64,000 nucleotides of DNA from Promethearchaeati archaeon SRVP18_Atabeyarchaeia-1 (GCA_037308085.1 CP147779.1:1088001-1152000), one strand, 5' to 3'. Positions 4,978 through 58,109 are shown, counted from the first letter of the stretch. Program-made: numbers and translations. The notes: generated by a model not told the origin, from the letters alone.

Positions 4978-5367
4978 GGCGACGCTATCACTTCTTTGGT
5001 GCTATTGCCTTTGTGGTTGTTGGTCGAACCTGCTACCTTCAGATTGGCGGGGAAGGCTGCGAAGAACGGTTGATAACAGATAGGTCGTCCTTTAGTCCTT
5101 CCCATATACAGCACCATTCAAGACAAGGTTGTCCATCTAGGGTCGTCGAAAATCGGTCGGTAATCAATCTATGTGATTCTATCCAATTGTCATTTCATCA
5201 GGTTCGTGTTGCTAAACACTCTCATCAGAAGATGAACATATGAAGAAGGGGTATGGGGGGACAGAATGATCGTCGATACTCTTAGCACATGATTCAATGG
5301 AATTTGATTACTGCTCGTAAGACATGAGCGCTTGGCAGTTCCAGTGCCTGTATAATTGAATAATGTG
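4978..5367 (+). ncRNA. Candidate structured RNA (three tandem helical domains) or long structured 3' UTR
   Basis: Helices 4978-4989/5079-5089, 5095-5107/5251-5262 and 5286-5298/5355-5367 with nested stems. G-U pairs favour the + strand. Confidence 0.5.
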
Positions 5368-5465
5368 GAGTTTTATTAGCAGACGATGGAGGAAATACCA
5401 TAGGATTTATCTCTTTGAAGGCAGTAAGAAAAGGAGAGAGGAAAGCCTTGGGGTGAGTCGACGGA

Positions 5466-6680
5466 ATGTCAGACACAGATTATGAATTGGAGTTATTGTC
5501 AAAACTTGTAGCTTTGGACACTGATTCGGATGAGAAAAGGAATTATGAGGAATGTTGTAGAGTCATATCCGGCGAAGCCAGTCGCATCGGACTGGACGCC
5601 CGAATACTCGATGGCAAAGTGGTTCTGAAGGGCGATGAGAGGCCAAGGCCAAATGTCGTCGTGGATCTGAATAAGAACTCGGACACGACGCTCGTGCTTG
5701 TGACCCACTACGACATAGTTCCTCCCGGAGGAGAATGGACTCATGAACCGTTCAAGGTTACCGTAGAAGGCGATAAGGCATACGGAAGGGGCACATCAGA
5801 TGACAAGGGTGCAATAGTCGCGTGCTTCGGGGCGCTTGCTAGGCTCAAAGAAGATGCTTCTGCTGACATCAACGTGAAGCTATTAGTGACTTGCGATGAA
5901 GAAGGCGGTGGAGAGGCCGGCATAGAGTACCTCATGGATAATGTCAAGATCAAGGGAGATGCAGCTCTAGTAATAGACAGTGGGCCTGAATTCGTGAGTT
6001 GTGGAGCCAGTGGGGTCATCTGGGGGAAAGTGAAGGTAAGAGGAAAACAAGGGCACGCTGGATATCCGCATAAAGCAGTAAATGCAATTGATGAAGCAAT
6101 CAAGATCATATCTTCGCTTCAAGAATACAGGAAGAAGCTGAGTTCAAGAAAGTCGAAACTTGCTCCACCACCGGGTAGCCCTGAGAAGAGAATTTGGAGA
6201 CGGTTGTCGGTAACCATGATGCATGCTGGTGAGAAGGAGAACATAATCCCCGGGGAATGCGAAATTCGATTTGATCTGCGTGCATTACCAGATGAGGACA
6301 TAGATGAGCTGAAGAGCGCTACGCGAGACTTCGTGACCAACGAAGCAAGGAGGAAAGGCGTGGACGCGAGCCTCGAGATCATACATGTTCTACCTGGTTA
6401 CTACACTGATCCCGGACACCCTCTGGTAAGGTCGCTGGGAGAGGCAGCCAAGAAAGTCTCGGGTGTGGAGCTGCCTGTATGCGCAGACTTGGGTGGGAAC
6501 GATGGAAGCTTCGTCGCAAAGGTTCAGATTCCAGTTGCATGCTTTGGGCCCCTTAGAGAAGGGACAAACTATCATGGCATTGACGAATTCGTCCATCTCA
6601 AAGATATAACATTTGTTCGCGATGTAATCATTAACATGTGTCAAGATGGCAGAAAGAAACTGAAGCAGCAAGTGGAATAG
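5466..6680 (+). CDS. M20 metallopeptidase (ArgE/DapE family)
   Basis: Motifs THYDIVP, GRGTSDDKG, DEE, GKQGHAG and C-terminal HGIDE. Confidence 0.92.
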   Translation: MSDTDYELELLSKLVALDTDSDEKRNYEECCRVISGEASRIGLDARILDGKVVLKGDERPRPNVVVDLNKNSDTTLVLVTHYDIVPPGGEWTHEPFKVTVEGDKAYGRGTSDDKGAIVACFGALARLKEDASADINVKLLVTCDEEGGGEAGIEYLMDNVKIKGDAALVIDSGPEFVSCGASGVIWGKVKVRGKQGHAGYPHKAVNAIDEAIKIISSLQEYRKKLSSRKSKLAPPPGSPEKRIWRRLSVTMMHAGEKENIIPGECEIRFDLRALPDEDIDELKSATRDFVTNEARRKGVDASLEIIHVLPGYYTDPGHPLVRSLGEAAKKVSGVELPVCADLGGNDGSFVAKVQIPVACFGPLREGTNYHGIDEFVHLKDITFVRDVIINMCQDGRKKLKQQVE

Positions 6681-6710
6681 TTGCACTTTTGACCAGCGAC
6701 TATTCCCTTT

Positions 6711-7562
6711 TCACCTTGAGACACCGCGCCATTCCCTCAGGGCTTTCTCGTATCCTTCGGGTGTGCCTGTGTCAAACCATTGCCCTGAAAACAGATAGCC
6801 GTATAGCTCGCCTTTCTCAGCTATCTTGGGGAAGACGTCCTTCTCTATGAAGGATGGACCGCTTGGGGGGACAAGATCTATGATCTTAGGTTGCAGAATA
6901 TAGAGACCCGTGTTTATTAGATTTGAGGGGGCATCTTCTCTGCGCGGTTTCTCAACGAACCTGACTATCTTGTTTCCTTCAAGGACAGCTACGCCGTAAC
7001 TTGAAGGATCGTCGACGGTTGTCAATGCGATAGTAGCAGTAGCTCTGTTCTCGACATGAAACTGGTACATTTTGTACAAGTCGATATTCAGCAAGTTGTC
7101 CCCGTTGACCATTATAAACGTGTCCTTCAGCAAGCTCTTGGCAAGTCTAAGCGGTCCACCCGTTCCCAGTTCGTCTTGCTCCTCGGCAAAGGTTATTTTA
7201 ACACCCAGTCTTTTCCCGTCGCGGAAATACTCCTTTATCTTCTCTCCCAAGTATCCGATGCTTATGATTATGTCGCGGACATCGTATGTTCGTAGCAGAT
7301 CGATGACGTGTTCCAAAATGGGCTTATTCTGAAGCGGAACTAATGGCTTAGGAATCTCATAAGTGATTGGGCGCAAACGTGTTCCCTTGCCTCCAGCCAA
7401 TATAAAGGCCTTGGGAGACATCTTCTCGAGCAGCGCCCCGAAAAGCAGTGATTCCACAGCTTGTGAGAGATTCCTCACCTTAACTCCATCAACCATTGAG
7501 CTGATCTTTCTCAGTATTTCGCTGTCGATGGTCATTGAAACCTTCTTCTTCCGTCTCTCCAT
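6711..7562 (-). CDS. Sugar-phosphate nucleotidyltransferase with N-terminal ribbon-helix-helix domain
   Basis: ILAGGKGTRLRPIT..PKPL, LGTGG, NGD, FVEKP, WFDTG. N-term KKVSMTIDSEILRKI...NLSQAVESLL is RHH-like. Start reset to ATG 7562. Confidence 0.88.
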   Translation of the reverse strand: MERRKKKVSMTIDSEILRKISSMVDGVKVRNLSQAVESLLFGALLEKMSPKAFILAGGKGTRLRPITYEIPKPLVPLQNKPILEHVIDLLRTYDVRDIIISIGYLGEKIKEYFRDGKRLGVKITFAEEQDELGTGGPLRLAKSLLKDTFIMVNGDNLLNIDLYKMYQFHVENRATATIALTTVDDPSSYGVAVLEGNKIVRFVEKPRREDAPSNLINTGLYILQPKIIDLVPPSGPSFIEKDVFPKIAEKGELYGYLFSGQWFDTGTPEGYEKALREWRGVSR

Positions 7563-7781
7563 GCTATTACCTTCCAGAATGATATTAGACGGGCAGTTAC
7601 GTGTGATGTTTCCTGCTTGCCTAGCACTGAGAGCTCTTTGAACAGGGCTCAATCACTTGGAACTAAGAGACAAGAGCTACATCAGTGTAGAACAAGAGAT
7701 GCAGTACTGAAGTAAAGGAATATAAGGTTTTTACCCTCGCTAACCTATACTAGGCAGATAGAACTTCAAAAGGCAATAAGC

Positions 7782-8081
7782 ATGGCAATGCGGTCCCTGG
7801 GTTCGCTGCTATCCGCCATAGGGTTTCTCATACTTCTCATCGGCATAATACTAACCATAATAGGATTGGCCTTATCAATAGTTAAGAGAAGCTCCAGGGG
7901 AAAGAAAACTGAGGGTCAGGACGAACGCGAGAGGGGCAGAACGCGAGGCGGAGGAGTCGTAATGATTGGCCCGATTCCAATAATATTCGGGACGGACAGG
8001 AAAATCGTTTTGATTGCAGTCGCCGTTGCCATAGTCTTTATGGTCATATACATAGTGTCTATGCTGCTCGTAACCTCCTAG
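7782..8081 (+). CDS. DUF131 / TIGR00304-type membrane protein
   Basis: Two TM segments flanking GGGVVMIGPIPIIFGTD. Confidence 0.85.
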   Translation: MAMRSLGSLLSAIGFLILLIGIILTIIGLALSIVKRSSRGKKTEGQDERERGRTRGGGVVMIGPIPIIFGTDRKIVLIAVAVAIVFMVIYIVSMLLVTS

Positions 8082-8094
8082 GGGAGGAAGGCAA

Positions 8095-8391
8095 GTGAGA
8101 AAACTCGGAGAATCTCTTGCGAATCTGGAAATAATGATCTCAGTGATAGGCGCGATAATCTTTTCTGCAGGTCTAACCATCAACTCTCTTCAGGGAGGAG
8201 CCGGTGCAACCATCTCGTTTGGAGGAGTCGTGCTGATAGGGCCGTTCCCCCTAGTATTTGGGACTGACAGGACAGCTCTCGATAGGAACAATCGGCGCCA
8301 TAATCCTGATGGGTTTTTCATTAATCATGCTCCATGCCCGAGTGAGGGGCGCTACTCGCCAAGCAGCGGGCGCAGCAAGCTACGGCGCTAG
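8095..8391 (+). pseudogene. Second DUF131 paralogue with an apparent frameshift near 8275-8281
   Basis: FGGVVLIGPFPLVFGTDRTAL runs into hydrophilic sequence, while the expected TM helix IGTIGAIILMGFSLIML lies in the next frame. Confidence 0.6.
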
Positions 8392-8459
8392 TGCGTATCA
8401 TAGAGGGCGCTGCGGACAAAAAGGTGGTCTACTGCGACCAGCTTGTCCCTGCATCGTCA

Positions 8460-11156
8460 TCAAGCATTCAAGACGGGGACTAAAACCTGATCGAAGATGG
8501 TATTGTCGTAAGCCGAGTAGAGTCTCAAGGGCATGCTCATACTCTTATTGTATGCCAAGCCGAGCATGGTAGCGTTTAATCCGGTCACCCTAAACTTGAC
8601 GGTTTGACCCGCGCTGAGATAGTACGTCTCAGTGTGCGGTATCCACGACGCGGTTCCTTGGTTCCAAACGTTCAGAGTGGGTATGGAAGCTTGCTTCGTG
8701 CCATTAATCCAGACGCTTCCTGTAAGGAGTCGGGTTAAGACCTTAGCCCCTAAGGCCACATTTTCAGACAAGGTATTGAGTGGAATAGCGGGCGCACCGC
8801 TACTTCCCATGTTAGTCGCGCTTATCACTGCGGTTCCATTCTTGTACAGAAATGTGTCACTTGCATTGATAACCAAATTGCCTAGCATGTCAAGTGGAGT
8901 ATAGTCGATCTTGTAGATCTTAACTAAGTCGCTAGAGGAGAAGAATGCCCTCTGGAAGAACCTCGGACCATAATCATCAATGCTTGTCACCCCGCTCCAG
9001 CCGACCTGTGTAGCGCCTTGATTTGTCAAGTAATCGTTTATCGAGGTCAGGTAGGTCGTAGTTGTGTCTGCCCAAATGGGTGCTACAGCCATGAAGTTTT
9101 TGGTCGACGTTCCCCGGCCGGCAGCCGTGCCCATAAAGTAGACCAGAGATATGTCTAATGAGTCGCTATAGGAGTGTGGCTCGTTGTTAAACATCAGCCG
9201 ATACAGCGTAGTGTTTTGGAAGAGTGGCCTTGTGACTTGTGATGTCTCATTGTAGTAGTCGCTTGTATTGATTAAGTTGGGGAAGTTATCTGCCGCTATT
9301 CTGGCCATCCAGATCCATTTTCCTTCGTCTCCTCCAATGTAGCTCTGCATGAATCCGAAGAATACCAGTGCGTAGTCGGCATGGAATCGCCTGAAGATTT
9401 GGAGTGACGCGGTCTCATTTGTCTCCATGAACCCCAGTCCGACGCAAGCAATCTGTGTGCTATTGCCAGTTCCATTATCGTCCACTGAGGTTCTGTTGCC
9501 CACTACCGTAATGTAGTACCCGTAGTCCCACCAAGCAACTACAACTGCACCAGGTGGTGCTTGGTTGTTAAGCCAACTCATTGCCTCCAGCCAATCGCCG
9601 TACGCGCCGGCTGGTAGTATCTCTGGTGGCGACATTCCCTGTATCAAGGGATAGCGTGATCCAAAGCCAGGCTGAATGATCATATTTCCATAGGAAAAGA
9701 GCAGTATCCCAATCACAAGAAAAGCTGCCGCCGCGTACTCACGACCAACTGTGGGTGTCATCCTAACCCTCTTTCTATGGATAATCTCCTCTTTCGGGGC
9801 TGCCATGATCTGGCCAAAAGGCCTAAGTACACTTGATAGCCCGTAGCCGGCAAGTATCGCGATTATCGGAGACAGGCTTATGACAATTCTCACCATGGAC
9901 CCTGAGAAGTAGACCAGGGTGACCGTGGCCAATATTATGAATATGTCTGCCTCAGACAGCCTCTTGAAGGAGAAGTAGATTCCAACTATGGAGAGCACTA
10001 CGAGTATTCCCAGATAGTAGAAGAAATCAGCCCAGGGGGTAGGTTGGTGCTCTCCAACCGAGGCGAGGATAGCTTCCTGAGTCTGCCTGAAGATAGGCAT
10101 GATCACAGTGTAGAACTTACCTCCAATGGGGCTGATCGTGAGTATTATGAACCCACCCACTGCGACGATGGCTGCGAGCAGGAACGGGTTCACTTTCGAA
10201 ATTCTACTGCCAATATTCCCCAAGGTCTTGAACTGAGCGAGGTACTTCGAAGTCTCGTAGAGAACCATAAGTCCAAGCACCATGAGTGCTGGAAGGATCT
10301 CCCCTGAAGCTAACTGCCCGACCCCGTTTCGTGGTGCTAGTACCATTATGAATAGGCCTATTAGCATCGTGATACTGTATGTTGTGAAGAGTCTCATGCT
10401 GTAGCGGCGTGTTATCAGCATAACTCCTGCAAATAGGGCAAATATGTCGATGCCGTACCTGAAGGTGCCCCAGCTAATACATAGGTATCCAAGGAATAGA
10501 CCGGCCAAGATGGCTGACGGAAATGAACCTCTCTTCAAAGATCTGATGAAGAAGTAGAATGAAATCAGCATGAGGAATATGCCAAAAGGCTCGTTGTCAA
10601 AAAAGCCGACCACTTGCCGCTGGATTATGGCTGGCGATACGGCAATGAAGAAAGCGGCGAGCAATCCGGAACGCTTGTCATAGATTTCTTTTCCGAGGAG
10701 GTAAACGACTAGGGGAGTCAGCGCGCCGAACAATAATGGCATATAGTAACAGACGGTGAAAGCCGAAGCGCTGATCCCAATGGCATTAACGAAGTAGTAG
10801 AATAGGACGGCAGTGAAGACCATTCCTGGGTATGTGTCTCCCGCAATGAATCTGCCGAAGGGGTACCAAGCGGAATAGTCGACCCAGTGGAACCAAGCGG
10901 GAAAACCATTACCAATGATAAACTGAACGTTCCTGTAAAAGTAGTACGGGTCGAACTCTTTTAGGAGGGGCTGCCAGCCAGCCATAAACACAGGCGATAT
11001 TCTGAGAAGAAACGCAATAGTGAATATGAGCACTAGAGAGACCGCAAGAATTGCCGTACTCCGTGGGATCTTGGCCGTTGCCGCCTTGAACGAGTTTTGC
11101 GTCAGCTGACCTAGTTTCCCAAAGATCCTCTTAATGCCTCTCCAAACCGACGAAAT
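8460..11156 (-). CDS. aglB: Oligosaccharyltransferase catalytic subunit AglB/STT3 (eukaryote-like)
   Basis: EFDP, WYPFGR..G.TYPG, DNE, SVGEHQP, WWDYG, and DEGKWIWMARIA (DK motif). Start placed tentatively at ATT 11156, 8 nt after GGAGGT; the ORF track extends to 11345. Confidence 0.95.
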   Translation of the reverse strand: MSSVWRGIKRIFGKLGQLTQNSFKAATAKIPRSTAILAVSLVLIFTIAFLLRISPVFMAGWQPLLKEFDPYYFYRNVQFIIGNGFPAWFHWVDYSAWYPFGRFIAGDTYPGMVFTAVLFYYFVNAIGISASAFTVCYYMPLLFGALTPLVVYLLGKEIYDKRSGLLAAFFIAVSPAIIQRQVVGFFDNEPFGIFLMLISFYFFIRSLKRGSFPSAILAGLFLGYLCISWGTFRYGIDIFALFAGVMLITRRYSMRLFTTYSITMLIGLFIMVLAPRNGVGQLASGEILPALMVLGLMVLYETSKYLAQFKTLGNIGSRISKVNPFLLAAIVAVGGFIILTISPIGGKFYTVIMPIFRQTQEAILASVGEHQPTPWADFFYYLGILVVLSIVGIYFSFKRLSEADIFIILATVTLVYFSGSMVRIVISLSPIIAILAGYGLSSVLRPFGQIMAAPKEEIIHRKRVRMTPTVGREYAAAAFLVIGILLFSYGNMIIQPGFGSRYPLIQGMSPPEILPAGAYGDWLEAMSWLNNQAPPGAVVVAWWDYGYYITVVGNRTSVDDNGTGNSTQIACVGLGFMETNETASLQIFRRFHADYALVFFGFMQSYIGGDEGKWIWMARIAADNFPNLINTSDYYNETSQVTRPLFQNTTLYRLMFNNEPHSYSDSLDISLVYFMGTAAGRGTSTKNFMAVAPIWADTTTTYLTSINDYLTNQGATQVGWSGVTSIDDYGPRFFQRAFFSSSDLVKIYKIDYTPLDMLGNLVINASDTFLYKNGTAVISATNMGSSGAPAIPLNTLSENVALGAKVLTRLLTGSVWINGTKQASIPTLNVWNQGTASWIPHTETYYLSAGQTVKFRVTGLNATMLGLAYNKSMSMPLRLYSAYDNTIFDQVLVPVLNA

Positions 11157-11274
11157 AGTCCTGAACCTCCGGCTACACTTGACAAGCGTCGCAATGCAAA
11201 GGATTGGAATCGGAATTATGTTAAGTTGCTCATATATCTTACGGTTAGGGGTTCCGTTGACTTGCCGATGGATG

Positions 11275-11651
11275 TGAAGGTGAGTGGAAGGCCTTGAGAT
11301 GATACTGGCTGGGGGTGACGGTGACATTGCTTTGGACGCGGGCAATGGCGCATCAACCCAGGCAACTAGTGCTTCCCTCTCGGACTCCAGCGCTGGTGTC
11401 TCTGTGACGCCAGCAAACCCAGCGGAAATCTTCGCATGCGTTTAAGACACGCAGGTGGCGCCACAAGATACTCACGCAGCCGTGACGACACAGTCCGGCG
11501 CAACCACTGGCGGTGGCGGCTTGGGTAGTCGCACGTTTCTGATCGAAAGAGTTGGCTAGCGGTGATGGCTATGAGAAGGCAGTCGATTCTCTTCGTTGCT
11601 TCTCAGTCATGGGCTCTTCTGTGACTCATCAGGAAACCTGCTCACCATTCA
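11275..11651 (+). ncRNA. Candidate ~375-nt multi-domain structured RNA between divergent aglB and serS
   Basis: Closing helix 11275-11287/11638-11651; hairpins 11325-11347, 11392-11414 and 11565-11610; G-U pairs on +. Confidence 0.55.
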
Positions 11652-11845
11652 GGCTGTAGCACTTCATTGTTGCAACGATCAAGGACAATCAGAAGAAAGT
11701 TGTCTGCAAGATATTTAAGCGAAAGACCGATTAGTTCTGCAGCATTGGACGAGATAGAAGCTGTTCATTCGCCCTTGGACACAATGGCCTAGGTACTCGT
11801 CACACGGCATATTGGGAGATCAATTATGAGTGTGAGGTCTGCAGT

Positions 11846-13138
11846 TTGCTAGATATGAAGCTAATCAGAGAACAACCTGAGACTGTGAAGAGCAATCTCG
11901 AAAGAAGAGGCGACCCTGAGAAGACGAAATGGGTCGACGAACTACTCAATCTCGACAAGAACTGGAGGGGTTCGAAGCAGGAGGTCGAGCAACTCAGACA
12001 TAGAAGGAACGTCTTGTCCGAGAAAATAGCAGAGCTGAAACGGGGAAAAGAAGATGTGACAGGGCAATTGGAGGAGACTCGGCGGATCCCTGCCCAGATA
12101 AAGAAGATCGAAGACGGCATGGCGGCTCAAGAGGAAAGAATCAGGTTCATACTAATGAGACTTCCAAACCTGCTTCACGACTCAGTTCCGAAGGGCAAGG
12201 ACGACAGCGAGAACGTCGAGGTGAAGCGTTGGGGGGAGGTAAAGGGGCTGAGCTTCAAGCCAAAGGGTCACATAGATCTGATGATTGACCTGGATCTGCT
12301 TGACATGGACAGGGCGGCAAAGGTCTCAGGTGCGCGTTTCTACTACATGAAAAACGAGGCGGTCCTGCTGGAACTCGCCCTAGAAAGATTCGCCATTGAT
12401 ATCCTCAGAGAGAAGGGATTTACAGTAATCGAGCCGCCTTTCATGATCAAGAGAGAACCTTACGAAGGGGTCACCTCGCTTGCAGACTTCGAGGACACTC
12501 TCTACAAGATCGAAAACGAAGATCTCTACCTGATCGCCACGTCGGAGCACCCGATGGGCGCAATGTTCATGAATGAAGTCCTGAATGCCGACGCTCTTCC
12601 ACTTAAGTGCGCAGGCCTGAGCCCATGCTTCAGAAAAGAAGCTGGGGCTCACGGAAAGGATACCAAGGGAATATTCAGGGTCCACCAATTCAACAAGATC
12701 GAGCAGTTCATCTTCTGCAGACCGGAGGATTCATGGGAACTCCATGAGGAACTGCTAGCTAACGCTGAAAACATCTACAAGATGCTCGAAATCCCGTACA
12801 GGGTTGTTAACATATGCACAGGCGATATAGGAACTGTCGCGGCAAAGAAGTATGACATCGAAGCTTGGATGCCAGCTCAGAAAATGTTCAGGGAAGTCGT
12901 ATCCTGCAGCAACTGCACCGATTATCAGGCAAGGAGATTGAACATAAGATATAGAGAGAAGACAGGAGAAAAATCAGAATTCGTACATACGTTGAACAGC
13001 ACGGCAATAGCAACGCAAAGGACCATAGTAGCGATAATCGAGAATTATCAGCAAGCAGACGGCTCAATCAGGATACCGAAGGCCCTTGTTCCATATATGG
13101 GCGGGCTCAATGAAGTCAGAAAGAAAGGAAGGGAATAG
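11846..13138 (+). CDS. serS: Serine--tRNA ligase
   Basis: N-terminal coiled arm, LIATSEH, FRKEAGAHGKDT, VHQFNKIEQF, EVVSCSNC, HTLNST. Confidence 0.97.
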   Translation: MLDMKLIREQPETVKSNLERRGDPEKTKWVDELLNLDKNWRGSKQEVEQLRHRRNVLSEKIAELKRGKEDVTGQLEETRRIPAQIKKIEDGMAAQEERIRFILMRLPNLLHDSVPKGKDDSENVEVKRWGEVKGLSFKPKGHIDLMIDLDLLDMDRAAKVSGARFYYMKNEAVLLELALERFAIDILREKGFTVIEPPFMIKREPYEGVTSLADFEDTLYKIENEDLYLIATSEHPMGAMFMNEVLNADALPLKCAGLSPCFRKEAGAHGKDTKGIFRVHQFNKIEQFIFCRPEDSWELHEELLANAENIYKMLEIPYRVVNICTGDIGTVAAKKYDIEAWMPAQKMFREVVSCSNCTDYQARRLNIRYREKTGEKSEFVHTLNSTAIATQRTIVAIIENYQQADGSIRIPKALVPYMGGLNEVRKKGRE

Positions 13139-13331
13139 CAGCCTTCCAAGAATAATCATTGCCTCTCGCTGGTTTTGACTCAAGAAACAACGATCAACAC
13201 TCTGGAAACTTGGTTTGATGACCAAAATGGTAATATCTCTCTGCAAATCAATTGCAACAGACCGCATCTGAAGGATGCTATTTCGCGGAGACATAGTCTC
13301 TCTTTCAGTTCTTGAGGTGCAATATCCGATC

Positions 13332-14828
13332 ATGCGCTCAATCAAGGAGCAGTTAGATCCCATCTTCTACCCGAAGTCGTTAGCCGTAATAGGGGCGAGT
13401 AACAACGCCTTAAAATGGGGATGGATAATTCTTCATAACATCCTTAGAAACCGTTACAGGGGCAGATTATACCCTGTTAATAGGAGCGAGGACAAGATAA
13501 TTGGGGTCAAAGCCTACCACTCAGTGGGTGCCTTGCCTGAACCAGTTGACTTGGCGCTGGTGGTGATTCCTGCCCATTCTGTGGCAGAAGCCGTAGAGGA
13601 GTGCGCCAAGAGTGGAGTCAAGGGCTGTGTGGTGATCACCTCAGGATTCAAGGAGAGCGGAGAAGATGGTGCCGCGCTAGAAAAGGAGCTCGTTGGCGTG
13701 GCGAGAAAGGCTGGCATTCGCATAGTCGGACCCAATTGCATGGGTGTCTTGAGCAGCACCGTAAGTCTTGTTGCGGTGATGTCTCTTATCGATTTGAGAC
13801 CGGGTCCTATAAGCTTCATCAGCCAGAGTGGCAACTTGGGCACGCTGGCAATGTGGAATGCTATGCAGATGGGAGTAGGATTCTCGAAATTCGTGAGCAC
13901 TGGAAATGAGGCAGATCTCCACTGTGAAGACTACATAGAATACTTCGGGCAGGATTCCGACACGAGCGTCATAGCATGCTACATGGAGGGATTCAGCGAT
14001 GCTAGGAGATTCATGAGAACCGCACACGAGGTAGCAGAAAGGAAGCCGGTCGTCGTGCTGAAAGGAGGAGTCACGCAGGCAGGATCCAGAGCGGCGCGTG
14101 CTCACTCAGGATCCTTGGCAGGGACAGAGAATATCTTTACAGCGGCATTCAAGCAGGCTGGGGTGCTGAAAGCGGAAAGCGAAGACGAACTCGTAGACTA
14201 TGCTGGGGCGCTGGCTTCGCAACCACTTCCAAAGAGTAACAGAGTGGGGATACTTTCCCTTGGAGGGGGATGGGGAGTACTTGCCAGTGACTCATGTGAA
14301 AAGCATGGATTGATCGTGCCACCTCTCCCTCCAATTGCCGTAAGCAGGATAGACAAGGTGTTGCCTCCTTACTGGAGCAAAGGAAACCCAGTTGATACTG
14401 TTGCAAAATTCGATGCTGCGACACTGCGCGTATGCATCGAAACTCTGCTTGAACTGGAAGCAATCGACTCGATAATAATCGCCGGGTTTGGCACATACTC
14501 ATACTTCGCTAGCGAGATTTCTGGATCGGCATTCGCCACGAAGGAACAAGCTGAGCTGTTCGATCAAATCAGCATGATCGAAGGGCAAATCGCGAAGGAT
14601 ATCGTAGACTCTAGAAAGAAGTACGGCAAACCGATAATGGTTGTCTCCCGCTTATCAGGCAGGGAATCCTCATCAATACAAATACTTGAATCTGAGGGAA
14701 TGCCTCCTTACCCGACGCCACAAAGAGCTGCAAAAGCTCTGAGCAAGCTCGTACAATATAGGAGGTTCATAGATTCCAGCCGCGAACCTAGAAATATGAA
14801 TCACAGAGAATGGGTTCCGGGAAACTGA
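13332..14828 (+). CDS. Acyl-CoA synthetase (NDP-forming) alpha subunit / acetate--CoA ligase
   Basis: PKSLAVIGAS, VGPNCMG, SQSG, phospho-His AHSGSLAG, NPVD. Confidence 0.92.
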   Translation: MRSIKEQLDPIFYPKSLAVIGASNNALKWGWIILHNILRNRYRGRLYPVNRSEDKIIGVKAYHSVGALPEPVDLALVVIPAHSVAEAVEECAKSGVKGCVVITSGFKESGEDGAALEKELVGVARKAGIRIVGPNCMGVLSSTVSLVAVMSLIDLRPGPISFISQSGNLGTLAMWNAMQMGVGFSKFVSTGNEADLHCEDYIEYFGQDSDTSVIACYMEGFSDARRFMRTAHEVAERKPVVVLKGGVTQAGSRAARAHSGSLAGTENIFTAAFKQAGVLKAESEDELVDYAGALASQPLPKSNRVGILSLGGGWGVLASDSCEKHGLIVPPLPPIAVSRIDKVLPPYWSKGNPVDTVAKFDAATLRVCIETLLELEAIDSIIIAGFGTYSYFASEISGSAFATKEQAELFDQISMIEGQIAKDIVDSRKKYGKPIMVVSRLSGRESSSIQILESEGMPPYPTPQRAAKALSKLVQYRRFIDSSREPRNMNHREWVPGN

Positions 14829-16343: not shown

Positions 16344-16369
16344 CGTTTCTAGCTCAATGGTGGACTGTT

Positions 16370-47994: not shown

Positions 47995-48009
47995 CTCTCC
48001 TTTGGTTCT

Positions 48010-48258: not shown

Positions 48259-48272
48259 TGTTTGACTTCCCC

Positions 48273-48566
48273 CTACTTCACAAGAACGTACTCCGCATCC
48301 ATAGCTGACTCGGAGTAGACTCCCTTTACTTTGTCAATTCTCTTGATACCTTTCGAATCCTTCATGAGGATCATGAACCCCATAGGCCAGTCAAGTGCTA
48401 TTCTCTGGATGTCGCCCTTCTTTCTGCCGACCTCGATCAATCCTCCGCCTGTCACCCAGTTCTCAATGACGATCTTGCAGAATTCTTCTGATTTTATTCC
48501 AGCGGCCTTGGCAAACTCGTCGATTTTTGCTTTTACCTGAGGGGTTATCTCAAATGCAATTGGCAT
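48273..48566 (-). CDS. Small protein with N-terminal RHH-like segment
   Basis: IAFEITPQVKAKIDEFAKAAGIKSEEFCKIVIENW; AGGAGG RBS. Confidence 0.6.
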   Translation of the reverse strand: MPIAFEITPQVKAKIDEFAKAAGIKSEEFCKIVIENWVTGGGLIEVGRKKGDIQRIALDWPMGFMILMKDSKGIKRIDKVKGVYSESAMDAEYVLVK

Positions 48567-48590
48567 TATTCTTCTCACTTCCTCCTTTCT

Positions 48591-49304
48591 TCATTTCTTC
48601 CGCAGTGCAGCCCTCACATATGGCTTGCCCCAGTACTCGCTGAATGCAACGCCTTCAAATGGATATCTTGTGGGTCCGAGTGCCCTTGACCTCTCTGGAA
48701 CGCCTAGACAGAAAGCCGTTATTGGGCGCCAACCGTATGGGATACCAAAGTGCTTCATGACCATGTCGCGTCTGCGATCATCGCCTATGCATGGAAAACT
48801 GTCCCAACCCGCGCCGATTCCCAGCCCTGTTGCAGCCAGCCACATGTTCTGCATAGCCATCGCAAAAGCGGAGTCAGTTATCTCGCGTATCGACGAAGGA
48901 ACGTAAGGTATATCGTAGTACTGGTCTGAAGTGCAAGATAGAAGCACCACGTCAGAGTTCTCAGGGTACCTGAATAGAGAGCCGTCGAACATACCCTCAA
49001 CCGTATCCACTCTCGCTTCTGGTGCAACATACCAAAGTCGGTCCGCAGGCATATCATACTTAGCCATTCCAAAAGCCAGCGCAGATGTCTCTTGAGCTAA
49101 GTCAGCCAGCAGTTTCTTGGACTCTGGATCTCGGATTACGATCCACTTCCAAGGCTGAATGTTCTCTGGTGAAGGAGCTTGCCTTCCAGCATCAATTATC
49201 CTTTCCACGACATCGTCGGGTACTTTTTCATCTTTCTTGAAGTGCCTTATGGTTCTCCTAGAATAGATCGCTTCGAAAACATCCAAAGGCTTTGACACCT
49301 CCAT
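48591..49304 (-). CDS. Nitroreductase family protein
   Basis: RRTIRHF, QAPSPENIQPW, QNMWLAATGLGIG. Confidence 0.93.
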   Translation of the reverse strand: MEVSKPLDVFEAIYSRRTIRHFKKDEKVPDDVVERIIDAGRQAPSPENIQPWKWIVIRDPESKKLLADLAQETSALAFGMAKYDMPADRLWYVAPEARVDTVEGMFDGSLFRYPENSDVVLLSCTSDQYYDIPYVPSSIREITDSAFAMAMQNMWLAATGLGIGAGWDSFPCIGDDRRRDMVMKHFGIPYGWRPITAFCLGVPERSRALGPTRYPFEGVAFSEYWGKPYVRAALRKK

Positions 49305-49336
49305 GTTGACTAATTCGCTTCTATTTTATAACAAGG

Positions 49337-49342
49337 TTAAAA
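49337..49342 (+). promoter_or_regulatory. TATA box (AAGG-TTAAAA) upstream of candidate large ncRNA
   Basis: First T lies 25-28 nt before the 5' arm of the closing helix. Confidence 0.5.
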
Positions 49343-49361
49343 GCATATTGGGTAGAAAATC

Positions 49362-49772
49362 GCGGCTTACCTCGGATGAAATCCAATCCACTGCCACTCA
49401 GAACAACCTACTATTAGCTGTTTGCCAGGAAACCCCGTTAGCCTGATGCTCAACCGACGTGAAATGGACTTGATGCAATACATTTCATACAGTTGGGGAG
49501 AGATTGGTCAGCTACCCGCCGCTGAAGCTTGCGGGCTGGCAACTCGAGGATTTCGCAATATCTCATCCAAGGTGTCTGCTCTCTAATGTGGCCAGCAATT
49601 ATGGCCTTATTCGTGGTTGGCATCTTGGAACGATTCCAGTCCCTGAACTCAAAAATGTGGACATCTGTCGGAATCTCGGGGGGAGTTGAAGAAATCTGGC
49701 GAGATTTAGCATCAAAGTCACCAGGGTTTTTGAAAAAGACTCGCTGGCATGAGTTTTTCCCGAGGTAGGCGC
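49362..49772 (+). ncRNA. Candidate ~410-nt highly structured ncRNA
   Basis: Closing helix 49365-49375/49760-49770 (11 bp); nested stems 49459-49466/49481-49488, 49543-49555/49669-49680 and 49566-49576/49619-49629; G-U pairs on +. Confidence 0.65.
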
Positions 49773-49902
49773 TTTAGCAGTTCTGCGCCTTCCCAGATCT
49801 TTTCACCTCTTTTCGTCGTAGACTCTTTCTCCATTAAAGTGCAGAGATCTGAGAAGAGTGTGCCCGCAGGCATTCAGTATTTCGCCACAATCTCTTTGTA
49901 CG

Positions 49903-51822
49903 CTAGATTTTTCTGGCGATTTCAGCTGCACCATGTACGGCATCCATTATCTTTCCACGCTTCGCCGCGTCTCCCACGACATAGGTCTCAGGGATCTTCC
50001 TTCTCAGATTCTCGAGGAGACTCGTGCTTGATACTGTACCCAGAGCAACGACAACGGTATCAGCTCTTTCCAGGTATCTGCCGCCTTCCTTCTCGTAGAC
50101 TGCTCCATCTTCGTTGATTTCAACAACCTTTGCCGATGTTATCAGCTCTCCTCCGAAGTCAGCGAATCTGTGTCTAACGTAGGAGTTGAAGGCTGGGATC
50201 ATTTCAGTTCCCACTTTTTTCATCTGCTCAATTATGGTAACCTTCTTGCCGTGTTCAGCAAGGTGATAGCCCGTCTCGAGGCCTATCTCTCCTCCACCTA
50301 GAATAGCGACCTTTTCACCCACATTCACTTTCCCTGCCAAGACATCTGTCGCGGGAACAACGTTCTCACCTTCAATACCAGGGATATCAGGAAGCGCTAA
50401 GATTGAACCCGTAGCCATACAAGCTACGTCCGGCGCCATGTCGTCAATCATAGATTCACTGACCTCTTCTGCCAAATGAATGTCTACCCCCAGTCTGTCA
50501 AGCTCATGTCTAAAGTAGGGAACTATGTTTTTCAGTTCGTACTTGTACGAGGGAGTTGAAGCCAGCAAAACCTGTCCACCGAGCTCATTATTCTGCTCAT
50601 AGAGCGACACGCGATGACCTCTCAACGCCGCTATTCTCGCAAATTCCATTCCACCAACCCCACCACCAATCACCAAAACCTTCTTGGGTTTCTGCGCAGC
50701 CTTGAACCGGAACTCATCTTCCCTCCCAACTGCAGCATTGAGGACGCAAGTCACAGGCTTGAAAAGAAAGAGCATGTTTATGCATCCCTCATTGCAGGCA
50801 ATGCAAGGCCTTATCTCCTCCAGCCTGTGCTCCATTGCTTTCCTTGGAAACTCCGGGTCGGCTATCAACGCTCTGCCAACAGAAACCAAGTCTGCATGAC
50901 CCTTCTCCACAATTTCCTCGGCAAGCCTGACATCATTTATCCTGCCCACGGCGATGACGGGTATATTAGCAACCTCTTTTATTCCCTGAGCCAAGGGCAC
51001 CATGAACCCTCTCGGTAGCCACATTGGTGCCGTTGACTCGCCATTCTTGGAGTCGTAGATTCCGCCCGAAACGTGAATCGCATCAACTCCCGCCTTCTCA
51101 ATAACTTGCGCAATTCTCTTGGCATCAGCCAAGACTAAGCCGCCCTCAAAGTAATCATCCCCGTTAATTCTGCAAATGATCGGAAAGCTTTCCCCAACTT
51201 TCTTCTTAATCGTGTGAATTATCTCCAACAGGAACCTTGTTCTGCCTAAGAAATCCCCGCCATACCTATCCTTCCTTAGGTTGGTAAGGGGAGATAAGAA
51301 CTGGTTAACGAGGTATCCGTGGGCAGCATGTATTTCCACAGTATCGAATCCCGCGTCCTTAATTCTTCTTGTCGCCTCACCGAAGGCATCGATGGTCTCC
51401 TCTATCTCTTTAAGGGTCAGCGGACGAGGCGTCTCTCTAATCAACAAGCAGGGAACATCAGAAGCCGAAACCGACTGCGCTCCTATAATTGCAGAAGGTC
51501 CTTGCCTGCCTCCATGAAAAAGCTGGATCGCCGCCTTAGCCCCCTCAGCGTGAATCGCTCCTGCAAGCTTGCTCAAACCTGGGATCTTATCATCGTTGGT
51601 GAGACTAATCTGGTTATTCAAGCCTCTGGCCAGAGGGTGAACGAAAGCACCCTCAACAATCACCAAGCCCACTCCGCCACGAGCGCGCTCCCGATAATAC
51701 TCGATCCCGCGTTGAGTTATCGAGCCATCTCCAGTCGCATAGTTTGTGTTCATCGGAGGCATTACGAGGCGGTTCCTAAGTTCCACACGTCCGATTCTTA
51801 CTGGTTCAAACAACTTGGTCGT
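49903..51822 (-). CDS. NADH:flavin oxidoreductase (OYE-like TIM barrel + Fe-S + FAD domain; BaiCD/2,4-dienoyl-CoA reductase family)
   Basis: HAAHGYL, CIACNEGC...CVLN, GGGVGG. Start is either ACG 51822 (giving MTKLFEP) or TTG 51813. Confidence 0.93.
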   Translation of the reverse strand, partial: TTKLFEPVRIGRVELRNRLVMPPMNTNYATGDGSITQRGIEYYRERARGGVGLVIVEGAFVHPLARGLNNQISLTNDDKIPGLSKLAGAIHAEGAKAAIQLFHGGRQGPSAIIGAQSVSASDVPCLLIRETPRPLTLKEIEETIDAFGEATRRIKDAGFDTVEIHAAHGYLVNQFLSPLTNLRKDRYGGDFLGRTRFLLEIIHTIKKKVGESFPIICRINGDDYFEGGLVLADAKRIAQVIEKAGVDAIHVSGGIYDSKNGESTAPMWLPRGFMVPLAQGIKEVANIPVIAVGRINDVRLAEEIVEKGHADLVSVGRALIADPEFPRKAMEHRLEEIRPCIACNEGCINMLFLFKPVTCVLNAAVGREDEFRFKAAQKPKKVLVIGGGVGGMEFARIAALRGHRVSLYEQNNELGGQVLLASTPSYKYELKNIVPYFRHELDRLGVDIHLAEEVSESMIDDMAPDVACMATGSILALPDIPGIEGENVVPATDVLAGKVNVGEKVAILGGGEIGLETGYHLAEHGKKVTIIEQMKKVGTEMIPAFNSYVRHRFADFGGELITSAKVVEINEDGAVYEKEGGRYLERADTVVVALGTVSSTSLLENLRRKIPETYVVGDAAKRGKIMDAVHGAAEIARKI

Positions 51823-51960
51823 TTGGCATTCCTCCGAGCATGCAGAAAACCAACTCTAGATTGGGCATCAGTTATATAAGTATGAAACAACGAAAAACAA
51901 CTCATAATAACCAATAAGATAAATCGATAAGGGAGAGCGGAAAAAACGAGCTTCCAATCT

Positions 51961-52254
51961 ATGATTAGAGGCCAGATCCTGAAAGCAGCCGTCATTGGAG
52001 GAATAGTCGTCTTCATCCTCACTGTTATTCTAGCGCTTGTCCTTGGAACCGTACTTATACCCACAGTCTTGGCAGACTACCTCATCATGTTTATTGTGAT
52101 TCTGCTGATATCAGGCTTTGTCGCGGGATTCATAGCAGTGTACCTGATAATGGGCATGGCCATTAAGCAGATGATAGCAATGTTCATGCCAGCTGCCAAG
52201 CCAGAGAAACCTGAGAAACCTGAGAAACCTGAGAAACCTGAGAAGAAGAAGTAG
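51961..52254 (+). CDS. Small two-TM membrane protein with (PEK)n tail
   Basis: Two hydrophobic helices followed by KPEKPEKPEKPEKPEKKK. Confidence 0.7.
   Translation: MIRGQILKAAVIGGIVVFILTVILALVLGTVLIPTVLADYLIMFIVILLISGFVAGFIAVYLIMGMAIKQMIAMFMPAAKPEKPEKPEKPEKPEKKK
52204..52239 (+). repeat. 9-bp tandem repeat GAGAAACCT x4 (in-frame, EKP)
   Basis: Read directly from the sequence. Confidence 0.9.
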
Positions 52255-52423
52255 TGGCGGCCGGTACAAGAACTCTCTTCTGAGCTGCATGTATCAGGCA
52301 GGATAGCCATCGAATTCGACTAGACGTAGTCGGGGGAGAGATACGGATACTCTCCTTTGACCTATTTTTTATGCTTAATGTTTAAGTATGCGCTGAATCT
52401 CAGCACAGACAAGGCGATAAATC

Positions 52424-56921: not shown

Positions 56922-57137
56922 ATCTCAACACCTAGACTCGTGAAACATGAATTCTACAGAGAAGCAGAGCACCTTACTAGAATAGCTTCCCAAAGGATGA
57001 CATTTTGTTCTTAAGAGTGAGCGAATATTTAAATGTCGTGGTGTCGCGCTCAACCAAGGTGATGAGGTTGCCAAAGGGGGCTAAACAGTGAAAATCTTTA
57101 ATTGGTTGAATGTCAACTAGTTGATAGGCTGATTATT

Positions 57138-57794
57138 ATGAGATACCATCTTCTCACCTGGGACGAGTGCTACAGACAGGCCAAAGAAGTCGCACGATTG
57201 ATAAGAAGAAGCGGGTTCTATCCTGAAGTGATAATTGCCCTTGCAAGGAGTGGGTTTGTTCCTGGTCGGATTCTGTCAGATCTACTCTCAGTCGATGATT
57301 TGGAGGGGCTACAAGTCCACCATGTGCTCAGTAGCGAACTGCCGGGAGAAGTTGAAGTAGAGAGCGAGTACGAGGCGGTAATCCCTTACAAAGCCCCGCT
57401 AGACATAAAAGGTGAAAGCACGCTCGTTGTCGATGACATTGCTGGAACAGGCAAGAGCATGACTGCTGCAGTTCAGTATCTTGAGTCACTAAAGCCAAAA
57501 GCTCTGAAGTCCGCTTCACTTGGATACTCAACAGAATCGATCATAAGGCCAGATTTCTTTGCCATGACAATAGGCGAAGATGATTGGCTGCTTTATCCCT
57601 GGAACTACTTTGAGGACTTTGAGGACATTATCATAAGAACGCAAAAGAAAACAAAGCGGCGAGATATGAGCCCTGAAGCCCTATCGAAGGCGATCGAGGA
57701 ACACTTTGGCATAACCCTTCCAATCGAGGAACTGAGATACGTAATGGGCGAAGCCAAAATACCTCATCCCGCCAAGCGCACCAAGCAGGAGTAA
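57138..57794 (+). CDS. Purine phosphoribosyltransferase-family protein
   Basis: LTWD, ARSG, VVDDIAGTGKS, YPW. Confidence 0.9.
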   Translation: MRYHLLTWDECYRQAKEVARLIRRSGFYPEVIIALARSGFVPGRILSDLLSVDDLEGLQVHHVLSSELPGEVEVESEYEAVIPYKAPLDIKGESTLVVDDIAGTGKSMTAAVQYLESLKPKALKSASLGYSTESIIRPDFFAMTIGEDDWLLYPWNYFEDFEDIIIRTQKKTKRRDMSPEALSKAIEEHFGITLPIEELRYVMGEAKIPHPAKRTKQE

Positions 57795-57820
57795 GAGGGG
57801 CACTCTTCGGACCAACAACT

Positions 57821-58109
57821 CTTTGTGCTACTCCCATCGTCTTAGTGTACCCTGCAAGTTGTGAAGCGAGACGTCAGGGAGCTTATCAAAGGCTCCCCAG
57901 AGACCGCCCTCATCTAATAGAGAGACGCCTATGCGATAGACTTAGAATCGGAGATCCTCCACATCGCACCTTACGGAAGGAAAAAGGCATGGCTTATCTT
58001 GCACGGCATTTCACGCCGCGTCTTCTTTTTCTTGAGCTGTGGCAACTATGATGTCAAACTCCACTTTGGCTTCAACAAGAGGGAAACGATGTAGTACTCG
58101 GCGACAAAG
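57821..58109. ncRNA. Candidate ~290-nt structured RNA / 3' UTR
   Basis: Interrupted ~18-bp closing helix 57821-57840/58086-58109; inner stems 57853-57858/57998-58003, 57877-57897 and 57932-57968. Confidence 0.45.

Follow-up and report, generated by a model that had tools for sequence, protein, structure and literature searches.

Seven long intergenic gaps in an Atabeyarchaeia-1 genome: probably one conserved structured small RNA, with ordinary non-coding DNA in the other six

The complete genome of the Asgard archaeon Atabeyarchaeia-1 has a low coding density (0.844, or 84%), and the 64,000-nucleotide stretch of it analysed here (bases 1,088,001-1,152,000; hereafter the window, with positions counted from its first base) includes seven long gaps between genes that raise the question of whether such DNA is a reservoir of structured RNAs. 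A sequence-only reading of the window, which rightly placed the DNA in an Asgard archaeon and judged folding by eye, had proposed that a folded RNA sits in almost all of the large gaps, at roughly one structured RNA gene per 9 kb, belonging either to several new classes or to one family of 375-410 nt. We found one such element, at 16370-16490 (gap 3), and we consider it likely that this gap carries a genuine plus-strand RNA gene and that gaps 1, 2 and 4-7 are ordinary non-coding DNA, not a repertoire of large structured RNAs. The gaps are listed below with the folding z-scores of each whole gap (plus strand, then minus strand), calculated against dinucleotide shuffles of the same gap.

Gap 1, 4978-5367: z = +0.30 and +0.14
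Gap 2, 11275-11651: z = -2.23 and -0.90
Gap 3, 16370-16490: z = -7.90 and -5.63
Gap 4, 38245-38479: z = -0.92 and -0.02
Gap 5, 45871-46282: z = -0.25 and -2.01
Gap 6, 49362-49772: z = -1.95 and -1.18
Gap 7, 57821-58109: z = -0.25 and -0.60

Nested helices had been taken as the signal of RNA genes in these gaps, and such helices are indeed plentiful, with about 30-75 of at least 7 bp per gap of roughly 400 nt when G-U pairs are allowed, but the shuffled sequences hold just as many. The longest helix, at about 10-12 bp, is likewise equalled by the shuffles, except in gap 3 and marginally in gaps 1 and 6, where 2-5% of shuffles match the longest helix of 14-15 bp. The helices seen by eye in the six gaps are what is expected of any sequence of 250-400 nt of such composition in which G-U pairs are allowed. 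The 13-bp closing helix of 16370-16468 was confirmed. One-sided G-U pairing had been read as a sign of RNA-level structure; the six gaps show no consistent strand asymmetry, and the argument that the gaps at 38245, 45871 and 49362 are antisense to both neighbours, and thus cannot be UTRs, depends on strands that were set by eye and that folding does not support.

The more general form of the proposal, that most or all of the seven gaps encode structured non-coding RNAs of 250-410 nt, either in new classes or in a single family that has diverged in sequence, can draw on the z of about -2 that three gaps reach on one strand and on single windows with lower values. In a sliding scan of 120-nt windows over bases 1-60,000, with gap 3 left out of the gap set, the mean better-strand z was -0.90 in gaps versus -0.52 in coding DNA, a slight shift (one-sided Mann-Whitney p = 0.03, uncorrected), and single windows go down to -3.3 (49561, plus strand) and -2.4 (38281, plus strand). 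The gap values nevertheless fall within the spread of coding DNA, in which 11% of windows have z below -2 as compared to 16% in the gaps, and the z-scores of the six gaps lie close to zero or do not surpass those of coding sequence. Two further points bear on a single family or a shared signal. No sequence is common to the gaps, or repeated elsewhere in the genome, other than a transposon-end repeat that is described below. The GGTTAAAA box said to precede two of the elements does occur at both places (16335 and 49335), but two occurrences in the 128 kb of both strands are, by simple arithmetic, about the number that chance provides.

The absence of credible open reading frames was borne out, in that no ORF with a Pfam match lies in any of the seven gaps, a result that is also compatible with RNA genes. 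Matches to known RNAs were absent as well: no Rfam 15 family (RNase P, SRP, snoRNA-like RNAs and riboswitches among them) and no tRNA was found in the seven gaps, with no Rfam match at gathering thresholds across the whole window and, at E-values up to 10, just two chance-level matches in the window, both off the gaps. A different source of hidden RNA genes is suggested by the tRNAs of this organism, since 92-95% of Atabeyarchaeia-1 tRNA genes contain introns, often several and at unusual positions (PMC11291895), and heavily interrupted tRNA genes might escape standard tools. ARAGORN recovers just 22 of the 40 published tRNAs, and by our own reading the published list is without some expected isoacceptors, e.g., Asp and Ile-GAT. 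We nonetheless regard this explanation as extremely improbable. None of the 40 published tRNAs maps to genome positions 1,088,001-1,152,000, ARAGORN finds no tRNA in the window, and the permissive Rfam search yielded no tRNA fragment there. A scan for a T-arm with a TTCRANN loop together with a 7-bp acceptor stem was also negative for the window; it recovers 11 of 25 known tRNAs, and 11 of its 13 plus-strand matches in the genome are known tRNAs.

We compared the six gaps with a few metagenome contigs and with the two available genomes from this family, and found that their sequence is absent from relatives, unalignable, or kept only beside gene starts, and much of what they contain can be assigned to the following features.

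4896-5440, no strand assigned: insertion of about 545 nt spanning gap 1, found only in the Atabeyarchaeia-1 genome
11293-11484, plus strand: pseudogene remnant in gap 2, derived from the C-terminal part of a surface protein with repeats and broken by an in-frame stop
38228-38237, minus strand: TATA-like box TTTTTATA (minus-strand reading) at gap 4, about 60 nt upstream of the start of the gene at 36724-38169
46292-46378, plus strand: sole conserved part of gap 5, a promoter-proximal stretch of 61-87 nt in front of the MJ1316/AP-endonuclease fusion gene
49335-49342, minus strand: second GGTTAAAA box, TTTTAACC on the minus strand, at gap 6, about 31 nt upstream of the nitroreductase start codon (49304)
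49504-49549, minus strand: remnant of a solo IS200/IS605-family (TnpB) transposon end in gap 6, a 45-nt repeat
49718-49873, minus strand: truncated 5' gene remnant of 51 codons at the edge of gap 6 (counterpart in G001 of more than 462 codons)
57858-57998, plus strand: decayed partial duplicate in gap 7, copied from the N-terminal end of the AlaX-like gene that follows and carrying two in-frame stops

Gaps 1 and 7 are missing from both relatives (G001 and G002). Homology to the two ends at 4895 and picks up again at 5441, and the genes that flank gap 1 are 13 nt apart in both; searches for a second genomic copy of the insertion and for translated similarity found neither. The gene pair around gap 7 is separated by 36 nt in G001 versus 386 nt in Atabeyarchaeia-1, and the additional sequence includes a 47-aa tblastn match to the G001 AlaX protein (49% identical, E = 4e-8) that is interrupted by stops, next to the intact AlaX-like gene at 58187-58984, which matches the same protein at 62%. 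In gap 2, a tblastn search with the intact G001 homologue P0001 found a 64-aa match at 52% identity (E = 3e-12) that is interrupted by a stop. Several of the gap boundaries were misplaced, in that gap 2 overlaps a possible start region of aglB and gaps 6 and 7 include decayed coding sequence.

What is conserved at gaps 4, 5 and 6 lies beside genes. The TATA-like box of gap 4 falls in the best-conserved block of the G000/G001 alignment, and the remainder, at about 78% identity and with indels of 1, 2 and 3 nt, is less conserved than its flanks; in other relatives homology stops at the BKACE stop codon. Blastn homology to gap 5 begins at 46292 in G001 and at 46318 in a metagenome locus (L151), and neither G001 nor the metagenome loci showed any conservation within 45813-46291. 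At gap 6, homology to G001 and G002 extends from the nitroreductase gene (48591-49304, minus strand) across the box and ends at 49351/49352, and GGTTAAAA at 49335 fits a promoter of this minus-strand gene. Outside these gene-proximal parts, gaps 5 and 6 cannot be aligned to relatives. The transposon-end repeat of gap 6 has about nine further copies in the genome and adjoins the 3' side of a TnpB gene in at least two of them (at 1949539 and 1958697, about 130-170 nt past the last domain of the TnpB genes at 1949211-1949411 and 1958870-1959070). The copy at gap 6 is a scar and not a working element, because it consists of only the terminal 45 nt or so, with neither a TnpB gene nor the upstream scaffold. 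The truncated gene at the edge of the same gap was recognized from the DNA alignment to G001 contig C11 and the ORF list of that contig, and from translated matches too.

Gaps 4, 5 and 6 therefore hold archaeal promoters and 5' leaders, and copies of genes that have decayed or been truncated are found in gaps 2, 6 and 7. With z-scores near zero or like those of coding DNA, no consistent strand asymmetry, no conservation in relatives (let alone covariation) and identifiable debris, the general claim fails, by the refuting conditions set out with it, for six of the seven gaps, and along with it the estimate of one RNA gene per 9 kb; that large structured RNAs fill most of the gaps seems to us very unlikely. 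Comparison alone may leave room for fast-evolving RNAs that are private to Atabeyarchaeia-1. It follows from the shuffles that helices found by eye, including those that appear strand-specific through G-U pairs, are to be expected by chance in a few hundred bases of this composition and are unfit for inferring RNA genes. The unusually long gaps of this genome appear to be largely genomic debris in the form of partial duplications, fragments of pseudogenes, scars left by transposons and insertions private to the lineage, which matters for the interpretation of low coding density in Asgard genomes.

Gap 3 is of another kind, with a z of -7.9 on the plus strand; like the other gaps, it has no Rfam match. 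Its parts are as follows.

16277-16334, plus strand: conserved upstream block with two short hairpins, GCGA..TCGC and ACTACT-GAG-AGTAGT
16337-16344, plus strand: TATA-like box TTAAAATC, within the GGTTAAAA box, upstream of the RNA
16370-16468, plus strand: structured small RNA core, closed by P1, a 13-bp stem (16370-16382 paired with 16456-16468)
16392-16408, plus strand: P2, a pyrimidine/purine hairpin
16409-16441, plus strand: P3, an optional hairpin
16442-16455, plus strand: unpaired C-rich stretch AAUCCCCUCCUCCA

Ten distinct homologues of this element were found, all confined to Atabeyarchaeia-like lineages (G001, G002 and seven metagenome contigs); a search of 148 other Asgard genomes gave no credible match, and its lone extra hit was marginal (E = 0.088). 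All ten have a hairpin in common besides P1 and fold strongly, at z = -5.6 to -10.2, and the reverse strand folds well too (-3.9 to -7.8), as expected of any long hairpin; the strands are told apart by the model score, which is 66-104 bits on the plus strand versus 17-20 bits on the reverse. P1 is 97.7% paired across the homologues as compared to 47-61% after its partner strand is slid by 1-3 columns, with a U-U mismatch in three homologues. Two of its pairs are altered on both sides and three on one side only, and several G-U changes are tolerated by the plus strand alone. The covariation is thin, the observed score being reached by 22 of 500 shuffles, because the element is very conserved, far better than its neighbour genes, whose proteins fall to 66-77% identity. 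Within the family, the unpaired C/U-rich stretch CCCCUCCUCC is 14-19 nt long, and its CUCCUCC has an unpaired probability of 0.96-1.00 in all ten homologues. Indels of 28-29 nt occur within the element, so that a conserved reading frame is excluded. Judged by these comparisons, gap 3 holds a strand-specific non-coding element that is conserved, folds strongly and has a promoter-like box of its own, and in it we have one well-supported RNA that is restricted to Atabeyarchaeia and lies outside Rfam.

In every syntenic copy the element is flanked by an FAD oxidoreductase gene on one side and a convergent DegT aminotransferase gene on the other, an arrangement that also admits another reading, in which the element belongs as a structured segment to the 3' UTR of the oxidoreductase mRNA, acting in stability, processing or termination and possibly released as a 3'-UTR-derived small RNA. 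In all nine syntenic loci the element is on the same strand as the oxidoreductase gene, 113 nt past its stop codon, and the stretch from stop codon to box is conserved: block 16277-16334 is kept across the nine aligned loci, and in our reading of the alignment the pairing of its second hairpin survives plus-strand G-U changes and one both-sided change. These G-U-compatible changes hint that transcription may begin further upstream, e.g., as the 3' UTR of the oxidoreductase. The evidence of the box points the other way. A TATA-like box is kept in nine of nine syntenic homologues (as TTAAATTC in one) about 27 nt upstream of the predicted RNA start, with no protein gene start nearby, and the spacer between box and P1 is constant in length (26-27 nt) and variable in sequence, which is the pattern that an archaeal TATA box and its transcription start would produce. 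Moreover, a paralogue in G002 retains the box (as TTGAAATC), the spacer and the RNA without the upstream block or the oxidoreductase gene. A selenocysteine-insertion (SECIS) role, which would tie the element to the upstream gene, was rejected, and we regard the 3' UTR explanation as rather unlikely. An RNA with its own promoter, as we prefer to read gap 3, would be about 100 nt long in Atabeyarchaeia-1 and about 75-90 nt where a relative is without P3, its start, end and expression being predicted from the box and the fold.

Several known families were considered for this RNA. Rfam 15 searched with 16270-16520 gave at best 13.9 bits (cut-off 70) and 13.3 bits (cut-off 40). The former is the lone match to a C/D box RNA, a class that calls for a C box (RUGAUGA) and a D box (CUGA) close to both ends, and TGATGA is absent from both strands of 16270-16520, which takes in the upstream block. 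Archaeal H/ACA guide RNAs are marked by tandem G-A pairs in a K-turn or K-loop of the upper stem, by a pseudouridylation pocket, and by an ACA that immediately follows, on the 3' side, a lower stem of about 9-10 bp. An ACA or ATA does lie 8-11 nt past the 13-bp stem in seven of the ten homologues (not L097, L146 and L147), but the geometry does not fit and there is no GA/AG kink-turn motif. For a SECIS element we looked for an upstream selenoprotein gene with an in-frame TGA and for the GAA/A internal loop of archaea or an AUGA..GA kink-turn core; the ORF upstream (14964-16256) runs without interruption, with a Pfam match over residues 11-427 of 430, and the element has no UGA, no AUGA/GA core and no Rfam SECIS match. 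As for Y RNAs, there is no Rfam Y_RNA match, and the TROVE/Ro60 domain (PF05731), detected in 2 of 14 control genomes, was not found in this 97%-complete genome.

The exposed C-rich motif is complementary to the Shine-Dalgarno sequence of the organism, in which 1,169 ORFs of at least 60 aa have a GGAGG 2-13 nt upstream of their start, and the element is a candidate new small RNA that possibly binds Shine-Dalgarno sequences. In the mechanism that we envisage, TTAAAATC would drive plus-strand transcription of the RNA, whose ends would pair in the 13-bp stem, closing a junction that bears P2, the optional P3 and the unpaired CCCCUCCUCC, and shielding both ends; the exposed CCUCC motifs would then pair with GGAGG-type Shine-Dalgarno or other G-rich sites in mRNAs and lower the translation of their targets. 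The full 10-nt complement lies at an mRNA start in none of its six genomic sites, so such pairing would be short and unspecific. Pairing with Shine-Dalgarno sites is the most likely mechanism that we infer. A bolder version, which we put forward tentatively and as possible rather than probable, is that the element founds an undescribed Atabeyarchaeia-specific family of small RNAs in which the exposed CCCCUCCUCC acts as a general Shine-Dalgarno decoy or sponge, or provides a platform on which a poly(C)-binding protein could dock; if true, it would add a global layer of translational control in an Asgard archaeon. To our knowledge, almost nothing is known of regulatory RNAs in Asgard archaea, and a small RNA with an exposed anti-Shine-Dalgarno motif therefore offers a concrete and testable entry point.

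Each of these elements has a likeness among known systems. The repeat at 49504-49549 corresponds to the terminal part of the repeat that follows TnpB genes, i.e., the right-end/guide-RNA (omega or reRNA) region of IS200/IS605 elements, of which gap 6 keeps only the last 45 nt or so. The gap-3 RNA resembles the Ro60-bound Y RNAs of eukaryotes and some bacteria in its length of about 100 nt, its long end stem and its pyrimidine-rich internal loop, but Atabeyarchaeia-1 has no detected Ro60 gene. Methanosarcina mazei has archaeal trans-acting small RNAs that mask ribosome-binding sites, and with these the gap-3 RNA would share an archaeal host, an intergenic location, a TATA-type promoter of its own and predicted pairing at translation starts, whereas it is restricted to Atabeyarchaeia-like Asgard lineages and by far exceeds its neighbour genes in sequence conservation. 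Among bacterial small RNAs, RsaE/RoxS of Firmicutes use exposed C-rich motifs to pair with Shine-Dalgarno sequences. The gap-3 RNA differs from them in its archaeal host, in having no sequence or Rfam similarity, and in carrying its C-rich stretch in a junction under a 13-bp end stem, not in hairpin loops; the likeness lies in a length of about 100 nt, in a stand-alone gene with its own promoter (predicted for gap 3), and in stable stems that flank unpaired C-rich (CCCC/CCUCC) stretches complementary to GGAGG ribosome-binding sites.

The Atabeyarchaeia-1 genome (G000) is a single contig, C1, of 2,808,651 bp with 49.6% G+C, of which the window is G000:C1:1088001-1152000, and its tRNA-Arg(CCG) gene, at genome positions 231487-231577, has the coordinates published for it. 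The curated genome, SRVP_Atabeyarchaeota_1_curated.FINAL, is that of an Asgard archaeon from wetland soil, in agreement with the sequence-only reading, and is described as 96.92% complete, with 5.08% contamination and a coding density of 0.844 (PMC11291895); low coding density and many long gaps are a known property of this genome. The sequence-only reading proposed that nearly every large gap in the window holds a large structured RNA. That umbrella claim is mostly refuted: one gap in seven contains a real RNA candidate, which is absent from Rfam, but the other six are ordinary and their apparent folds are the product of chance. We compared the minimum free energy of each whole gap, on each strand, with 100 dinucleotide shuffles and expressed it as a z score, negative when the gap folds better than its shuffles.

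Whole-gap folding z scores, plus strand then minus strand
Gap 1, 4978-5367: +0.30 (+), +0.14 (-)
Gap 2, 11275-11651: -2.23 (+), -0.90 (-)
Gap 3, 16370-16490: -7.90 (+), -5.63 (-)
Gap 4, 38245-38479: -0.92 (+), -0.02 (-)
Gap 5, 45871-46282: -0.25 (+), -2.01 (-)
Gap 6, 49362-49772: -1.95 (+), -1.18 (-)
Gap 7, 57821-58109: -0.25 (+), -0.60 (-)

A sliding scan of 120-nt windows over bases 1-60,000 on both strands gave a mean better-strand z of -0.52 for coding windows (11% below -2) and of -0.90 for gap windows without gap 3 (16% below -2), the two sets differing at p = 0.03 (one-sided Mann-Whitney, uncorrected). When helices of at least 7 bp were counted with G-U pairs allowed, a gap of ~400 nt contained 26-92 of them, the longest of 10-15 bp, as compared to means of 32-75 and a longest helix of ~10-12 bp in dinucleotide shuffles of the gaps. 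The sole clear outlier was gap 3, with a 13-bp helix that 2% of its shuffles reached (shuffle mean 8.3); gaps 1 and 6 were marginal outliers. Helices are thus present in the gaps, but at chance level outside gap 3, and the resolution of mismatches as G-U on one strand, once read as a mark of RNA, is also expected by chance as soon as G-U is allowed. The similar size of four gaps (~375-410 nt) is a coincidence, and none of the six ordinary gaps shares sequence with another. The absence of credible ORFs and of known RNA classes from the seven gaps was correctly perceived: no ORF there has a Pfam match, and the gaps contain 0 Rfam families and 0 tRNAs. Ten small ORF candidates in the gaps belong to no Pfam family, and a possible ORF at 46179-46382 (62-67 aa) is not counted as a gene because its weak translated match (E = 0.005) sits inside a conserved promoter region. 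Five further windows of the scan fall below -3.8, at 1561-1680 (-), 9541-9660 (-), 14701-14820 (+), 31201-31320 (-) and 37021-37140 (+), all mostly or wholly within coding sequence. At 52329-52375, after the gene 51961-52254, a G+C-rich hairpin with six Ts in a row after it (z = -3.6 in the scan) looks like a terminator.

As 92-95% of the tRNA genes in Atabeyarchaeia-1 carry introns (PMC11291895) and ARAGORN recovers 22 of the 40 published ones, the window was searched for tRNA genes broken up by introns. It includes none of the 40 published genes, Rfam detects no tRNA fragment there even at E up to 10, and a specific scan for a T-arm plus acceptor, which recovers 11 of 25 known tRNAs, returned nothing in the window; these three sources lend no support to interrupted tRNAs hidden in the gaps.

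The contents of the gaps were compared with syntenic regions of the nearest relatives, G001 (MAG LC30, labelled as the same genus) and G002 (Candidatus Atabeyarchaeum deiterrae, CP147780), as well as with those metagenome contigs on which the flanking genes have orthologues. Homology to the two relatives ends at 4895 and restarts at 5441 around gap 1, the flanking genes of which are 13 nt apart in both; the 545 nt in between are an insertion found in G000 only, with no second copy in the genome, no translated similarity and a z of ~0. In gap 2, 11293-11484 (+) is a pseudogene. It resembles the C-terminal part of a surface protein with repeats, at 52% identity over 64 aa (E = 3e-12), and a stop codon interrupts the matched stretch; in G001 this protein is intact. 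The remainder of gap 2 separates aglB and serS, which are divergently oriented. Gap 4 can be aligned with G001 only; its identity of ~78% is below that of its flanks, and the alignment has indels of 1, 2 and 3 nt. Its best-conserved block includes a minus-strand TATA-like box that precedes the gene 36724-38169, and in further relatives the homology stops exactly at the BKACE stop codon. Conservation of gap 5 is limited to its last 61-87 nt, upstream of an MJ1316/AP-endonuclease fusion gene. Between the genes that bound gap 7 there are 386 nt here as compared to 36 nt in G001, and within the extra DNA 57858-57998 is a decayed copy of the AlaX N-terminus, 49% identical over 47 aa and interrupted in frame by two stops.

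Two wider differences between these genomes were also seen. At the nucleotide level the acyl-CoA metabolism cluster (36000-52000; mostly 75-87% identical) is clearly closer to G001 and G002 than 1-20000 is (mostly 64-75%), a difference that may stem from recent transfer or from a stronger constraint, and parts of this cluster are scattered at different places in G002. The 517-aa gene 13275-14828 is missing at the same position in G002 and in the metagenome loci L144 and L145, where the oxidoreductase gene comes immediately after that for seryl-tRNA synthetase, and looks like another lineage-specific insertion.

Gap 6 had been linked to gap 3 through a shared box, GGTTAAAA. Two copies do exist, but by our own arithmetic this is about the number expected in 128 kb (both strands). 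The gap-6 copy, TTTTAACC on the minus strand, lies ~31 nt upstream of the nitroreductase start codon and is conserved together with that gene; it fits a nitroreductase promoter and not the promoter of a plus-strand RNA. Further along, 49504-49549 is one copy of a ~45-nt repeat with ~9 other copies in the genome, and since at least two of these come after TnpB genes, the gap-6 copy would be a solo IS200/IS605-type end. The TnpB zinc-ribbon domain, PF07282, has 46 matches in the genome, of which some contain in-frame stops, some sit in short open frames of ~40-150 aa, and several are followed by a ~100-nt repeat. What remains at 49718-49873 (-) is the initial 51 codons of a gene whose G001 counterpart is more than 462 codons long. 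Neither this truncated gene nor the oxidoreductase gene 49903-51813 (old-yellow-enzyme type) is found at the same position in G001 or G002, and the absence of the latter there implies that the locus has been rearranged; the adjacency of the genes in 49718-51813 to the solo transposon end suggests that a mobile element had a part in this.

The exception, gap 3, contains an element at 16370-16468 (+) with a z of -7.9, built as follows.

Architecture of the gap-3 element
16370-16382 with 16456-16468, plus strand: closing stem P1, 13 bp
16392-16408, plus strand: hairpin P2
16409-16441, plus strand: hairpin P3, 28-29 nt; also at L097 (about 8880-8915) and L002
Within the element, plus strand: unpaired stretch of 14 nt, AAUCCCCUCCUCCA

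When four copies were turned into a covariance model, the model matched G000 once, G001 once and G002 twice. In the other 148 of 151 Asgard genomes searched it finds no credible copy, the one marginal match (E = 0.088) being taken as chance. In the metagenomes a hairpin-pattern scan gave no match, and a scan for the C-rich pattern gave mostly chance matches, with a true homologue in L097 only among the 80 loci listed; six further homologues came from contigs that encode proteins closely related to the upstream FAD oxidoreductase. This makes 10 distinct sequences. Nine of them are flanked by the oxidoreductase gene on one side and by a convergent DegT aminotransferase gene on the other, and the element is much better conserved than these neighbours, whose proteins are only 66-77% identical.

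All ten share the fold (z from -5.6 to -10.2), and in each CUCCUCC is unpaired with a probability of 0.96-1.00. P1 is 97.7% paired, a figure that falls to 47-61% if the partner strand is shifted by 1-3 columns. Two of its pairs have changed on both sides, and in three a change on one side has produced G-U or U-G, wobbles that become mismatches on the opposite strand. The covariance model likewise scores 66-104 bits on the plus strand vs 17-20 on the reverse. P3, present in G000, G001 and L097 and absent from the close relatives L142, L144/L145 and L147, is an optional module, either gained or lost repeatedly, and the 28-29-nt indel at its site means that the element has no conserved reading frame. 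In two metagenome contigs (L142 2835-3086, L143 2000-2251) public annotation has a gene of 83 aa that crosses the small RNA in antisense, a call that the frame-breaking indels among homologues suggest is spurious.

A TATA-like box, TTAAAATC, precedes the element in all nine syntenic copies (as TTAAATTC in one), and the paralogue, the second copy in G002, has the variant TTGAAATC. No protein gene starts near this box, and the spacer to the stem is conserved in length (26-27 nt) and not in sequence, as is expected of the distance from an archaeal TATA box to the start of transcription. In a crude genome-wide hexamer survey, too noisy for a TATA consensus, TTAAAA and TTAAAT were 8-13 times as frequent upstream of ORFs as within ORFs. 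A block of ~60 nt (16277-16334), which lies between the oxidoreductase stop codon and the box, is conserved in all nine syntenic loci and forms two short hairpins, the second of which stays paired through plus-strand G-U changes and one change on both sides; it could be a site where a regulator binds, the 3' end of the mRNA or a segment of a longer RNA. Because these G-U-compatible changes lie upstream of the box, the element could be part of the oxidoreductase mRNA, either as a segment of its 3' UTR or as a fragment cleaved from it. When contigs from four metatranscriptome runs were compared with 1-20000, they yielded three short pieces (90-95% alike), all inside the seryl-tRNA synthetase gene, which have no bearing on gap-3 expression either way.

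The best functional reading of the gap-3 RNA is probably a trans-acting small RNA, the exposed CCUCC motifs of which would pair with Shine-Dalgarno sites of the GGAGG type. GGAGG precedes 1,169 long ORFs in the G000 genome; a complement to the C-rich stretch over all 10 nt is present at six genome sites, none before a start codon, which weakens the target reading. With regard to known systems, the region has no similarity to any Rfam family even when searched alone; a Y RNA was rejected for want of a Ro60/TROVE gene in the genome, SECIS, H/ACA and C/D box RNAs were ruled out on sequence, and a tRNA was considered and rejected. The gap-3 RNA is put forward as a candidate for a new family of archaeal small regulatory RNA, additional to those in Rfam.
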